From: an uncultured Acidobacteriota bacterium
GTDB taxonomy: Bacteria > Acidobacteriota > Thermoanaerobaculia > Multivoradales > UBA5704
DNA length: 64,000 bases
Assembly: GCA_963755825.1 (NCBI GenBank)
Contig: CAVWLA010000003.1
Coordinates: 1,313,261-1,377,260 of the forward strand
Reading direction: 5' to 3'
The notes beneath the pieces were generated by a model that worked only from the letters and a program-made list of their open reading frames with translations, made no database searches and was not told the DNA's origin. Positions 43,956 to 46,909 of the stretch are shown here, piece by piece. How positions within the stretch are numbered: the first letter of the stretch is position 1; each line of letters begins with the position of its first letter. The position numbers were made by a program, and so were the translations under genes.

Positions 43956-44780
43956 TCAGTCGAACAGCTCGAAGTAGGCGAGATAGTCGTCCAGCACGCG
44001 GTCGAGGTTGGTCCGCTCGCGGACCCGGCGCATGGCGGCCAGCCCGCGCTCCCAGGTCTCGCCGTGGAAGTCGCGCCGCGCGCGCTCGATCGTCCCCAGG
44101 ATCGCGGGCAGATCGGCCGCGGTGTAGTACGGGTAGTCCTCTCCCAAGAGCTCGACGGCGCTGGCATCGCGGGTGGTCACCAGGTTAACGCCGCACGCGG
44201 CCGCCGTCGAGATCTTGCAGTTGGGCTTGTAGAGCACCTCGCGCTCGTCGGCGCGGATCGAGAGGTGGCAGTTGAACTCGAGGGCGCGGCGGAAGTAGTC
44301 GCTCGAGCAGCAGACGACGCCGGGGATCTGGTCGCAGAGGGCGAACGAGCGGCGGTCGCCGAGATAGGCGATGGCGAACGGCCGCTCGGCGGCGGCGGTC
44401 GGCGCGTAGCGCGCGTCCCACTGGTGGTAGATGACGCGGTCGCGCCCCCCCGCCAGAGCCGGCCGGCCGAAGTCGGCGAGCTGGCGGCCGTTCTTGAAGA
44501 TCAGGCCGTCGAAGAGGCCGAGGTTCTTGATCTTCGGCTTGAAGACGACGGTGTCTTGGACGTCGAGGATGGTGAGGTTGTCCTGGCGCCGGGCGCGCAC
44601 CAGATCCCACCAGCGCGAGGTCTTGATGGCGACGACGATCGCCCCGCGGAGCGCCGCGAGGTCGCGCCGATAGATCGCCGCCGAATCGACGCCGCGGGCG
44701 GCGAGCCCGGCGCTGATCTGGTCGGCGCCCATCACGGTCGAGCCCTTGTCGTAGTACTTGAGGAAACGGATGGGGCGCAT
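43956..44780 (-). CDS. Hypothetical protein, possibly GT-B glycosyltransferase-related
   Basis: Host-like codon use; KPNCKISTAAACG resembles a GT-B C-terminal motif. Confidence 0.6.
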   Translation of the reverse strand: MRPIRFLKYYDKGSTVMGADQISAGLAARGVDSAAIYRRDLAALRGAIVVAIKTSRWWDLVRARRQDNLTILDVQDTVVFKPKIKNLGLFDGLIFKNGRQLADFGRPALAGGRDRVIYHQWDARYAPTAAAERPFAIAYLGDRRSFALCDQIPGVVCCSSDYFRRALEFNCHLSIRADEREVLYKPNCKISTAAACGVNLVTTRDASAVELLGEDYPYYTAADLPAILGTIERARRDFHGETWERGLAAMRRVRERTNLDRVLDDYLAYFELFD

Positions 44781-44898: not shown

Positions 44899-46257
44899 TC
44901 AGGCCGAGGGATCGAACTGCAGCCGCGGATTGCGGCTCGCCCTGAGGAGGAAGTTGGCGACGCAGCGGGCCAGCTTCGGCGTCGCGCAGCTCCTCTCCAC
45001 CGCATGGGTGAAGGCGACCACGGCGGCGAGCGCGTGGTGTTGGACGTCCTGGGCCACCAGGATGGGGAAGGTCTCGGCGGCGAGATCGGCTACCTCGCGG
45101 CTCCTCCCCAGGCGGAGCAGCAGCGCGGCGAGATCCATGGTTACCACCGCGGCGTCGTAGGCCATCCCGTCCTCGGTGAACCGGCGCTGCACCTCGCGGA
45201 GCGCCGCCTCGGCCTCGTCGTCGCGATCGAGCCCGGCGGCGATCCGGCCGGCGAGCCAGAGCCGCCGTACCTCGGCCGAGGCATCCGGAAACTCAGCGTA
45301 GAGGTGAGCGAAGCTCTCGAGGTGAGCCAGCGCCTCCGCGTGGTGGCCCGCCTCGTCGGTGAACCAGGCGAGGTTGTGGCTCGCCCAGAGGCGCAGGCGC
45401 GGCTCGCGATCCTGGTCGAGGAGCGGCAGGCTCTCGCGGATGAGCGCGGCCGCCGCCAGCGGATCGCCCTGATGGCCGATGACGACGCCCTTGCTGAGGA
45501 GCGCCCGGCCGCGGAGGTGCGGCTCCTGCACCTCGCCATAGATGTCGATGACCATGTCGAGGAGCTCGACCGCATCCTCGAAGCGTCCGCGGTCGGCGGC
45601 GAGCGAAGCCTTGAAGTCGAGGAGCCGGGCCTGCTCCAGTGGATCGGCGGAGCCCTCGTCGATCAGGCTCTGCGCCAGGTTGAGCGCTTCCTCGGCGCCG
45701 CGCCGATCGCAGCCCACCCGGCGGGCGTTCCCCAGGTAACCCCAGGCGCGGCCCTTGAGGTCGCACACCACCGAGCGGCCGTAGACCGCGGGATCGACCC
45801 GCTCGGCGAGCTCGATCGCCAGCTCGGCGAGCTCCAGGGCCACGGCGGGCTCGTGAAAGCCGGCCTGGAAGCTGCTCTCGATGAGGCCGTCGCAGATGGC
45901 GAGGGTCCACAGCCGCGAATCGGCACGGACCGCCGCATGGCGCTCGCGCGGAGAGAGGGAGAGCAGGCCGCCGATCTGCGCCGGCGCCTCCAGCCGATCG
46001 CGCTGGATGCAGCCGAGGTGGCTCTTGAGCCGCCGGATGTCCAGCCGCGGCCAGGAGGCTCCCTTGGCCTGCTGCCTTGGCTCCGCCGCCAGCTCGAGCC
46101 AGGAGTCGCCGTCTGCCAAGGGCAGGAGCTGGTCGAGCTCGCGCTGGCAGATCCGGCACCCGGAGCGCAGATGCTCGACGATCCGCCTCTCCTCATGTCG
46201 GAAGACCTCGCCGCGAGCGAAGCTCTCGAGGTCCTGACGGCCGGGGTGGTAGCTCAT
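44899..46257 (-). CDS. TPR-repeat protein with an N-terminal zf-HC2-like motif
   Basis: GAGGA RBS; HLRSGCRIC motif; TPR helices (RAWGYLGNARR, GRALLSKG, ASHNLAW). Confidence 0.85.
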   Translation of the reverse strand: MSYHPGRQDLESFARGEVFRHEERRIVEHLRSGCRICQRELDQLLPLADGDSWLELAAEPRQQAKGASWPRLDIRRLKSHLGCIQRDRLEAPAQIGGLLSLSPRERHAAVRADSRLWTLAICDGLIESSFQAGFHEPAVALELAELAIELAERVDPAVYGRSVVCDLKGRAWGYLGNARRVGCDRRGAEEALNLAQSLIDEGSADPLEQARLLDFKASLAADRGRFEDAVELLDMVIDIYGEVQEPHLRGRALLSKGVVIGHQGDPLAAAALIRESLPLLDQDREPRLRLWASHNLAWFTDEAGHHAEALAHLESFAHLYAEFPDASAEVRRLWLAGRIAAGLDRDDEAEAALREVQRRFTEDGMAYDAAVVTMDLAALLLRLGRSREVADLAAETFPILVAQDVQHHALAAVVAFTHAVERSCATPKLARCVANFLLRASRNPRLQFDPSA

Positions 46258-46546
46258 CCTCATCCTCCTCAAATCACTCGCCGGCTCCAGCTCGACGGCG
46301 AAACGCATGGGAGGCGAACGATGGCCTCCACTGGATACAGTTGCCGAAACAGCAAAAAAAGGGACACCTGCTCCAAAAAAGGGCGCTGGATCCGCTTGGT
46401 CTCCTGCGGGCGGACCGCCTTCGGCCCCACCCGCCTAGTCGCGCCCTTCCAGGCGACCCTCCTCGGAACCAAACGGATCCTCTACCCAAAAAAAGGAGCT
46501 GGTGCTCTGCGGCCAGGCCGGCGAAGACGGGCCGCGCTGCGGCGGA

Positions 46547-46744
46547 TTACTTCCTCGAGCCGTTGGGGTCGAACGTGCCGCTCGAGGCCCCGATGAGATG
46601 AAGAAACACCGTCCAAAGGCTGGACTGGCGTGGATGGGGAGCTCTCCCGCGACCGGCGCCGAGGGGATCGGCGGAGGCGGTGACGGCGAGGGCTAGCGTG
46701 AGCAGAGCGGCGACGGCGGCGCGATGGAGGCTGGTGCGGGGCAT
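46547..46744 (-). CDS. Small secreted peptide precursor ending in GTFDPNG
   Basis: Signal peptide with ASA cleavage site; amphipathic LWTVFLHLIG segment; C-terminal DPNG. Confidence 0.7.
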   Translation of the reverse strand: MPRTSLHRAAVAALLTLALAVTASADPLGAGRGRAPHPRQSSLWTVFLHLIGASSGTFDPNGSRK

Positions 46745-46909
46745 GGTTCGACCCTATCCCGGGCAGGACGCCTGCACGGCCACGACGGACGCTCACGCCT
46801 GCCCCTATCTCTATGGAGTCCAGGCAATCCGCCAAAGCGTGACAAGTTGTAGATACACCGGTGCCTTTCGAGATGCCGCGGCGGCCCGGCCGACGGGCGA
46901 AGTCTCGGC

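Follow-up and report, generated by a model that had tools for sequence, protein, structure and literature searches.

The question raised by this locus is whether a very small open reading frame (ORF) and the larger gene that follows it encode a peptide and its receptor. The window, meaning the whole stretch of 64,000 nt that was analyzed, comes from an uncultured Acidobacteriota bacterium of the class Thermoanaerobaculia (assembly GCA_963755825.1, contig CAVWLA010000003.1, positions 1,313,261 to 1,377,260). On its minus strand, a 65-codon ORF with a signal-peptide-like start lies upstream of a gene for a 452-aa tetratricopeptide repeat (TPR) protein, and the initial annotation, made from the sequence alone, had proposed these as an exported pro-peptide and a cytoplasmic receptor analogous to those of the RRNPP systems. 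The present analysis found the peptide-TPR pair to be a conserved unit of a large family in the Thermoanaerobaculia, a family without functional annotation. The reading favored here, considered about evenly balanced between right and wrong, is that of a peptide-gated soluble anti-sigma sensor which resembles RRNPP receptors in logic and fold and the zinc anti-sigma (ZAS) factors in output.

The signal peptide, linker and LWTVFLHLIG stretch first attributed to the 65-aa ORF were all recovered in the sequence. Its product begins with a basic start (R3, H7 and R8); residues 9-23 make up a hydrophobic core (Kyte-Doolittle 2.32), with A-S-A at 23-25; beyond this signal peptide lie a Pro/Arg-rich linker, the amphipathic LWTVFLHLIG and a tail of GTFDPNGSRK. 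The peptide had initially been described as terminating in SSGTFDPNG, whereas its actual C-terminus is ...SSGTFDPNGSRK, with three residues (SRK) beyond DPNG. A single-sequence search with the 65-aa peptide detected no paralog in the genome and, elsewhere, solely a same-genus ortholog; a profile was therefore needed. Built from 15 paralogous peptides with this ORF left out, the profile scored the ORF at E = 5.9e-6 among the 63,408 ORFs of the genome. The ortholog lies in G002, a metagenome-assembled genome of an uncultured Acidobacteriota of the same genus, where the region is syntenic with this locus. Comparison with G002 in the coding frame gave synonymous/non-synonymous counts of 8/11 for the first 33 codons and 7/6 for the last 24 codons, against 2/15, 4/16, 1/12 and 4/10 in other frames, and the TFDPNG core is kept in the ortholog via synonymous changes. 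Because of the leave-one-out profile, the frame-specific synonymous excess and the tight linkage to TPR genes described below, the small ORF is, on sequence grounds, held to be a genuine gene.

Within the 6.1-Mb genome, approximately 41 TPR paralogs of the 452-aa protein were identified. At their N-termini, 22 of these carry a zinc-finger-like His/Cys motif and approximately 10 an XRE-type helix-turn-helix (HTH), with the remainder having neither. A motif scan for ORFs combining a signal-peptide-like start with DP[ND]G returned 15 examples, while the leave-one-out peptide profile identified 22 peptide genes. Alignment of 16 paralogous peptides showed a common layout consisting of a signal peptide, a basic linker, a Trp/Leu amphipathic helix and one to three copies of xDP(N/D)G, and the same layout is found in the 22 paralogs and in hundreds of relatives. 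Less than 900 nt separates the peptide gene from a TPR paralog in 21 of the 22 cases, where our arithmetic gives a chance expectation of approximately 0.5. The zinc-finger paralogs possess a nearby peptide gene in 16 of 22 cases (14 upstream and co-oriented, two on the opposite strand) and the other paralogs in 9 of 19 cases, all on the opposite strand. The initial annotation had stated that such TPR proteins and DPxG peptides recur in Acidobacteriota genomes, and in this genome they do. The orphan peptide gene (C3:306745-307020) is flanked by a GH38 alpha-mannosidase-like gene and by a gene whose 479-aa product is without a Pfam match.

For a tree of the TPR domain, the 11 paralogs with the weakest or partial matches were set aside and the remaining 30 of 41 were used; the tree divides into two groups with support of 100/98. 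The group of 16 contains 15 zinc-finger copies, including the 452-aa protein and both copies that are linked to sigma factor genes, and the group of 14 contains all 10 HTH copies together with four zinc-finger copies. At C3 ~27.4-29.2 kb, a separate 128-aa XRE HTH gene was seen to overlap the start of a zinc-finger-type TPR paralog, which looks like either a split HTH-TPR fusion or a third output wiring. It should also be noted that another peptide-TPR pair is immediately preceded by a sigma-54 activator gene, at C3 ~392.7-393.8 kb. Its product contains Sigma54_activat and HTH_8 with no receiver domain detected, and a fragment resembling its C-terminal part also occurs upstream of a relative's TPR locus (L041).

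For the search of other genomes, the peptide profile included this ORF and up to 129 candidates were scored per genome. Matches were found in 31 of 41 genomes (this one included). None of the 24 further members of its taxonomic family lacked a match, each having 3-54, and outside that family 6 of the 16 genomes of the order were positive. The TPR profile, with up to 41 candidates scored per genome and per-genome counts that saturate, matched in 39 of these 41 genomes. Every one of the 30 further genomes with a peptide match also had a TPR match, and two genomes had neither. When the best peptide locus of 29 other genomes was inspected, a TPR homolog was present within 1.5 kb in 29 of 29. The nearest homolog was on the opposite strand in 16 of these, co-oriented with the peptide upstream in 12 and co-oriented with the peptide downstream in one, and in the 16 opposite-strand loci the TPR profile match begins after the zinc-finger region. 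Of the 29 peptides, 27 contain xDP[NDST]G in one to four copies; in zinc-finger-linked peptides the motif is often the exact C-terminus, and in HTH-linked peptides it is flanked by two cysteines. Profiles of both genes and their adjacency had been put forward as a check in the initial annotation, with a lack of genomic linkage named as the outcome that would speak against a pair; linkage was found both here (21 of 22) and elsewhere (29 of 29).

In a sample of 301 genomes from the phylum, for which five candidates of each were scored with a TPR match cut-off of E ≤ 1e-20, 14 genomes contained a TPR match; all belong to the class of the window, with none among the genomes related at phylum level only. 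One of these 14 is an unpublished genome (G063), which also accounts for one miss (L052) in the count of sigma genes given below and enters into no other result. In public protein data, 4,735 clusters at 50% identity match the TPR profile at E ≤ 1e-30. Those family members that are named appear as 'tetratricopeptide repeat protein' or 'hypothetical protein' of Thermoanaerobaculia, and relatives are labelled Thermoanaerobaculia or Acidobacteriota. A Protein Atlas search returned unnamed Acidobacteriota clusters, all below 0.9, and a single-protein query for related loci returned two loci only.

The 452-aa protein had been described as a cytoplasmic, all-helical TPR protein, which agrees with the absence of any membrane-type stretch (highest 19-residue hydropathy 1.41) and with an all-helical model (predicted local distance difference test, pLDDT, 91.4; predicted template modeling score, pTM, 0.86). 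Pfam detected TPR_12 alone (5e-10) and NCBIfam gave nothing above its cut-offs. In a VIA-align fold search of the TPR model against 48,161 representative chains, the top matches were LGN (Z 23.4), Pins (Z 22.2) and degron-bound APPBP2 (Z 21.8). The resemblance to RRNPP receptors claimed at first was also recovered, with NprR-NprX (303 residues aligned, root-mean-square deviation [rmsd] 5.1) and a phage Rap with its peptide (280 residues, rmsd 3.6) both at Z 21.0, and with further matches to RapI (Z 20.2), RapH (Z 19.8), PlcR-PapR (Z 16.2) and AimR (Z 15.2); Foldseek agrees with this outcome. A sequence profile of the domain was of generic TPR_12 type, having KLC1 (3.8e-16) and Pins (9e-16) on top. 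Judged by its model, the TPR domain is a groove-binding peptide superhelix fold which has the RRNPP receptors among its closest matches, though not uniquely.

The co-fold of the TPR protein with the C-terminal peptide that the initial annotation had suggested was run with TPR residues 85-452 (94-row alignment) and peptide residues 26-65 (16-row alignment). Three runs gave ipSAE values of 0.60, 0.63 and 0.63, compared with 0.36 for the best of three controls, and at least 71% of contacts were in common between runs. Among solved complexes, 58 of 80 attain the mark that was applied, as do 2 of 110 mismatched pairs; these counts hold roughly here because own alignments were used. The confident interface is confined to peptide residues 54-65, with the Trp helix lying outside: N61 and G62 contact TPR residues 177, 180 and 181, T57 and F58 contact residues 258, 291, 294, 295 and 298, and D59 contacts residues 255 and 258. 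No TPR residues are better conserved across the family than N177 and R180, both of which had been flagged from alignments ahead of the co-fold. TFDPNG, with its DPNG core, is thus predicted by the model to sit in the TPR groove against N177 and R180.

The N-terminus of the 452-aa protein contains H29-x4-C34-x2-C37 along with a distal H4. All 14 aligned paralogs, which are 28-37% identical to the 452-aa protein, have these four putative zinc ligands, and conservation of the ligands across 94 sequences is at least 90%. A profile of 15 N-termini matched the solved anti-sigma factors DdvA (9.3e-6), ChrR (5.5e-4) and RslA (1.8e-3), with the ChrR alignment spanning the distal His through to the Cys pair. 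The domain modeled alone had a pLDDT of 79.6. Ranks 1-10 in Foldseek were all anti-sigma domains (weak E of 0.6-2), as were 7 of the top 11 rows in VIA-align (Z 3.3-5.2), and the best fold matches include RslA, RsiW, MucA, DdvA, RseA and ChrR; weak structural scores are to be expected for 65 residues. On this evidence of profile matches and fold ranks the N-terminus is assigned to the zinc-type class I anti-sigma domains, as had been proposed from the H-x4-C-x2-C motif, and zinc binding is predicted for it.

At 18 of 27 loci of relatives, a gene for an extracytoplasmic function (ECF) sigma factor of one subfamily lies directly upstream of the TPR gene and co-oriented with it (gap of -4 to 236 nt). 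Six sigma genes of the matching subfamily, three of them unlinked to any paralog, are present in this genome as candidate partners. The earlier claim of an output through a sigma factor thus finds agreement in the loci of relatives and none beside this copy: no sigma gene adjoins the 452-aa gene, and the proposed partner would therefore be encoded elsewhere. The region C1:859730-869020 is the sole place in this genome where a sigma partner is co-encoded with the family. Here, three ECF sigma genes and three TPR paralogs are found with a peptide gene at the head, in the order peptide-sigma-zfTPR, sigma, sigma-zfTPR, TPR (zf, zinc-finger).

It is suspected that these parts operate together as follows. 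The 65-aa product would be exported by Sec and its signal peptide removed, after which a short C-terminal piece centered on TFDPNG would be released outside the cell and then taken up again. In the cytoplasm, this piece would occupy the groove of the TPR superhelix against N177 and R180. The N-terminal zinc-type anti-sigma domain would hold an ECF sigma factor, in this case one encoded elsewhere, for which the three unlinked sigma genes of the matching subfamily are available. Binding of the peptide would alter this hold, such that the extracellular peptide level would set sigma-dependent transcription. The Sec-type signal, the small size, the one to four motif copies and the often C-terminal position of the motif in zinc-finger-linked relatives are all traits resembling those of a pro-peptide. 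One SBP_bac_5 (OppA-type) gene was found at C3:1265119-1266210, which shows the presence of such a protein only. By analogy with RRNPP systems and ZAS factors we infer export, processing, re-import and sigma binding, along with the direction of the response and any dependence on density. The notion of an RRNPP-analogous system in a diderm accordingly kept those of its parts that are testable in silico, with 'analogous' and not 'member' being the fitting word. It is also tentatively conceived, as a picture somewhat more apt to be wrong than right, that this diderm soil acidobacterium could possess approximately 20 parallel channels. A channel would consist of one Sec-exported xDPNG pro-peptide and a cytoplasmic TPR receptor of its own, wired via a zinc anti-sigma domain and an ECF sigma factor (this copy) or via an XRE HTH (sister paralogs).

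A number of observations weigh against the favored reading. The GC content at third codon positions of the small ORF is 0.79 compared with 0.90-0.95 in adjacent genes, and its codon log-likelihood of 2.5 falls under that of 95% of real-gene pieces of the same length, with 7% of short ORFs scoring higher; because of these values, codon usage alone is undecided. The ORF is uncalled in the deposited annotation, and its G002 ortholog has, in a central part of low conservation, an indel of net 1 nt that splits the signal-peptide and motif frames, which may be an assembly error or a pseudogene. Viewed from the TPR side, peptide linkage is partial. Eight other genomes are TPR-positive without a peptide match, and a strict DPxG scan upstream of the 27 best TPR loci (13 genomes of the class) found none, with one in controls; a relaxed scan of the 27 loci found a few diverged peptides at 630-800 nt upstream with a sigma gene between. 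Divergence of peptide and TPR protein shows a weak correlation (Mantel r 0.25, a value matched or exceeded in 359 of 5000 permutations), and the core motif is common to all paralogs, raising the question of how some 20 channels stay separate.

Further points concern the two domains and the proposed route. The TPR fold match is generic, LGN scoring above every RRNPP protein, and there is no RRNPP protein among the best 60 of 135 profile matches to solved chains. In the co-fold, the pLDDT of the peptide partner was 46-48, leaving its own fold uncertain, and one control reached 0.36; because TPR-peptide complexes have already been solved, the pass indicates likeness and a consistent pose and not binding. 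In the N-terminal domain, the His spacing is H-x4-C in the 452-aa protein against the usual H-x3-C, which several paralogs have, and the 452-aa protein alone has no Pfam zf-HC2 match, with 3 of 15 paralog N-termini reaching it. Few of the zinc-finger paralogs in this genome are adjacent to an ECF sigma gene (2 of 22, one of them in a peptide-sigma-TPR operon), and none of the 36 Sigma70_r2 matches genome-wide lies in or near this locus. Passage through the outer membrane and uptake are left unaddressed by the proposal.

Among other explanations, the small exported protein may itself be the output, with the zinc-finger/TPR regulator and its sigma factor controlling the neighboring gene and the TPR domain sensing something else. 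The product would then have an extracytoplasmic site of action and could be, for instance, an amphipathic, Trp-rich peptide with antimicrobial or envelope activity. ECF operons often control adjacent genes, and in some cassettes (C1:859730-869020 and the locus L098 of a relative) the peptide gene heads a peptide-sigma-anti-sigma operon. The conserved Trp/Leu amphipathic helix of the mature part falls outside the confident co-fold interface, and an upstream motif is common to four peptide genes (see below). However, xDPNG, the most conserved segment of the peptide, is what the co-fold sets against the invariant groove residues, and one to four motif copies with C-terminal motifs suit a processed signal over a folded effector. 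Moreover, Pfam analysis of 61 neighbor genes at 15 paralogous loci detected no immunity or transporter genes. This explanation is considered unlikely, and the two roles are not mutually exclusive, an autoinducer being both input and output. A less probable explanation again is that the partner of the TPR domain is the C-terminal end of the precursor prior to export, bound intracellularly in a secretion-coupled partner switch or chaperone-type sensor, where export of the small protein would free or occupy the anti-sigma protein with no re-import. This requires neither outer-membrane passage nor an importer and has precedents in the class II chaperones of type III secretion and in the secretion of the anti-sigma factor FlgM, which acts on sigma28. 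The co-fold cannot distinguish an imported fragment from a precursor tail, nor does such a model separate the favored reading from an output role. Against precursor binding, Sec signal peptides normally give rapid, constitutive export, and hence a small cytoplasmic pool, and approximately 20 diversified pairs per genome suit specific signals over a general export sensor.

The initial annotation had offered a precursor of the RiPP type (ribosomally synthesized and post-translationally modified peptide) as its alternative, in which dedicated enzymes would act on the small ORF product and the TPR protein would serve a biosynthetic cluster in recognition or regulation. The small size, repeated core motifs and Cys-bracketed loops of HTH-linked relatives would suit this, yet no shared maturase, protease or exporter occurs among the same 61 neighbor genes at the 15 paralogous loci. 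The genes flanking the pair in the window are unrelated and of housekeeping type (SelB, a CoA-binding protein, OsmC, a SprT-like protein and YqeY) with no modifying enzyme among them, and a Sec signal peptide is not a usual RiPP leader; the alternative is regarded as highly improbable. Just as little credence is given to the idea that the 65-codon ORF is untranslated and that its conservation reflects a leader or promoter of the TPR gene. The marginal codon statistics, the missing gene call and the broken frame in G002 would fit such an idea. They stand against the protein profile from which this ORF was left out, a synonymous excess confined to this frame in both halves, and a protein layout held in common with the 22 paralogs and the relatives. 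In addition, an Rfam scan of the locus gave no real match, and RNA folding of the leader and spacer gave z-scores of 0.4-0.5, nothing unusual.

The features of the locus are collected in Table 1. The two genes had been described as co-oriented and approximately 290 nt apart, and the spacer was measured at 289 nt with both genes on the minus strand. A start-codon survey and the GAGGAGG element 6 nt upstream favor the ATG at 46257 as the start of the TPR gene.

Table 1. Features of the peptide-TPR locus, given in window positions.
Feature	Position	Strand	Remarks
Exported pro-peptide ORF, 65 aa + stop (putative)	46744..46547	minus	'Trp-helix + xDPNG' family; profile E = 5.9e-6
Predicted Sec signal peptide, residues 1-25	46670..46744	minus	Hydropathy and motif; cut site putative
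Codons T57-F-D-P-N-G62, core motif and predicted receptor-contacting segment	46559..46576	minus	Family conservation and co-fold
Conserved upstream region (promoter/leader) of the peptide gene	46745..46860	minus	Aligned to G002
Motif TGTCACGCTTT	46844-46834	minus	100 nt ahead of the peptide ATG
Zinc-type anti-sigma + TPR superhelix protein, soluble, 452 aa	46257..44899	minus	
Class I anti-sigma-like three-helix domain, residues 1-56	46090..46257	minus	Putative zinc ligands H4, H29, C34, C37
TPR superhelix, residues 74-452, predicted peptide-binding sensor	44902..46038	minus	pLDDT >90; N177 and R180 family-invariant
Shine-Dalgarno GAGGAGG	46264..46270	minus	6 nt upstream of the ATG at 46257

Approximately 95 nt of the spacer consist of an inserted dispersed repeat (window 46386-46487). 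This repeat is similar to miniature inverted-repeat transposable elements or repetitive extragenic palindromes, with terminal inverted repeats of GGATCCG.TTGG ... CCAAACGGATCC. It is present in 47 copies in the genome with a median identity of 86%, in more than 40 copies in G002 and in further copies in G001 and G013, and is not present at the orthologous G002 locus. Immediately downstream of the TPR gene, a 274-aa ORF (window 43956-44780, minus strand) has strong coding statistics and is without a Pfam match, and it is conserved and syntenic in G002.

Alignment of the region upstream of the peptide gene to G002 ends approximately 116 nt before the ATG, where synteny breaks. Within this region lies a copy of the motif TGTC[CA]CNCTT[TC], which has 13 occurrences genome-wide. 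Four of these sit 93-119 nt upstream of peptide-gene starts, and a fifth cassette-linked copy falls in the peptide-TPR spacer of another cassette; the cassette-linked sites are window 46834-46844, C3:392699, C1:809849, C1:2110870 and C1:809418. This motif may represent a shared promoter or operator element of some cassettes. It was also considered as a sigma-54 promoter, an assignment which was dropped as its -24 element is without GG. A scan of the locus for sigma-70 promoters and terminators detected nothing exceeding shuffled sequences.

Peptide pheromone circuits with cytoplasmic TPR receptors belong to the textbook biology of Gram-positive bacteria, just as anti-sigma factors are textbook stress sensors. 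No paper combining 'RRNPP' with 'Acidobacteria' or 'Acidobacteriota' was found in a literature search that did not extend to supplements. A broader search showed no Acidobacteria among its top listings, the words of the motif led to unrelated papers, and Thermoanaerobaculia to nothing relevant. No paper describing this peptide-TPR/anti-sigma system was found by these searches, and it appears to be undescribed. Should the picture of some 20 parallel channels be true, this would be the first anti-sigma factor under the control of a peptide pheromone as well as the first genetically encoded, re-imported peptide signaling outside Gram-positive bacteria. If the family does what its architecture suggests, the principles of the peptide receptor and of the anti-sigma factor would be united in one protein. 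An abundant and poorly understood soil phylum would gain a many-channel language for cell-to-cell or self-sensing. It would also represent a compact and modular peptide-to-sigma switch that is testable with synthetic peptides.

Of the known systems, the eukaryotic LGN/Pins and kinesin light chain provide the best profile and fold matches of the TPR domain and hold extended peptides in their inner groove. Their biology is unrelated and they have no anti-sigma domain, the likeness being that of TPR_12-type repeats generally.

The RRNPP(A) systems are the peptide quorum sensing systems of Bacillota, their phages and plasmids, and comprise Rap-Phr, NprR-NprX, PlcR-PapR, AimR-AimP and Rgg-SHP. As effector they have either an N-terminal HTH or, as in Rap, a helical bundle to which a response regulator binds, and their peptides are exported, processed outside the cell and imported again via an oligopeptide permease. 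The present system resembles these in having a small gene for a predicted Sec-exported pro-peptide beside that of a cytoplasmic TPR-superhelix protein and many diversified pairs per genome, with a motif that is repeated or C-terminal in the pro-peptide. The TPR fold is similar (LGN scoring higher), the co-fold model puts the peptide into its groove, and approximately 10 HTH-fused paralogs exist in the same genome. It differs in its host, a diderm Acidobacteriota and not a member of the Bacillota, and in an effector that is a zinc anti-sigma domain in the 452-aa protein in place of an HTH or Rap-type bundle. In Pfam and NCBIfam only generic TPR models match it, the best 60 of the 135 profile matches to solved chains being without an RRNPP protein; the xDPNG core is common to all paralogs, and no processing protease or importer was identified here. 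The 452-aa protein is thus RRNPP-like but not a member of RRNPP, as effector domain and phylum differ and the sequence family appears to differ as well. In the portions of two RRNPP surveys that were consulted, Acidobacteria are not mentioned (PMC9765709; PMC10075063).

The comparison with ZAS factors concerns the other end of the protein, where an N-terminal helical domain with a distal His and H-x(3-4)-C-x2-C is again found. The profile matches DdvA, ChrR and RslA, and relatives lie directly downstream of ECF sigma genes. Known ZAS factors (ChrR, RslA, RsiW, RsrA and DdvA) have H-x3-C-x2-C and a distal ligand approximately 25 residues upstream, usually with the sigma gene directly upstream. 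The 452-aa protein differs in its H-x4-C spacing and in having no adjoining sigma gene. According to the retrieved portion of a reclassification of ECF sigma factors, soluble anti-sigma factors occur in 10 groups and others may exist; a zinc-finger/TPR type is not described in that portion (PMC7826278). In the soluble 452-aa protein, a TPR sensor of approximately 380 residues replaces the membrane anchor, cupin domain or redox-only switch of the ZAS factors, and the signal proposed for it is a genetically encoded peptide.

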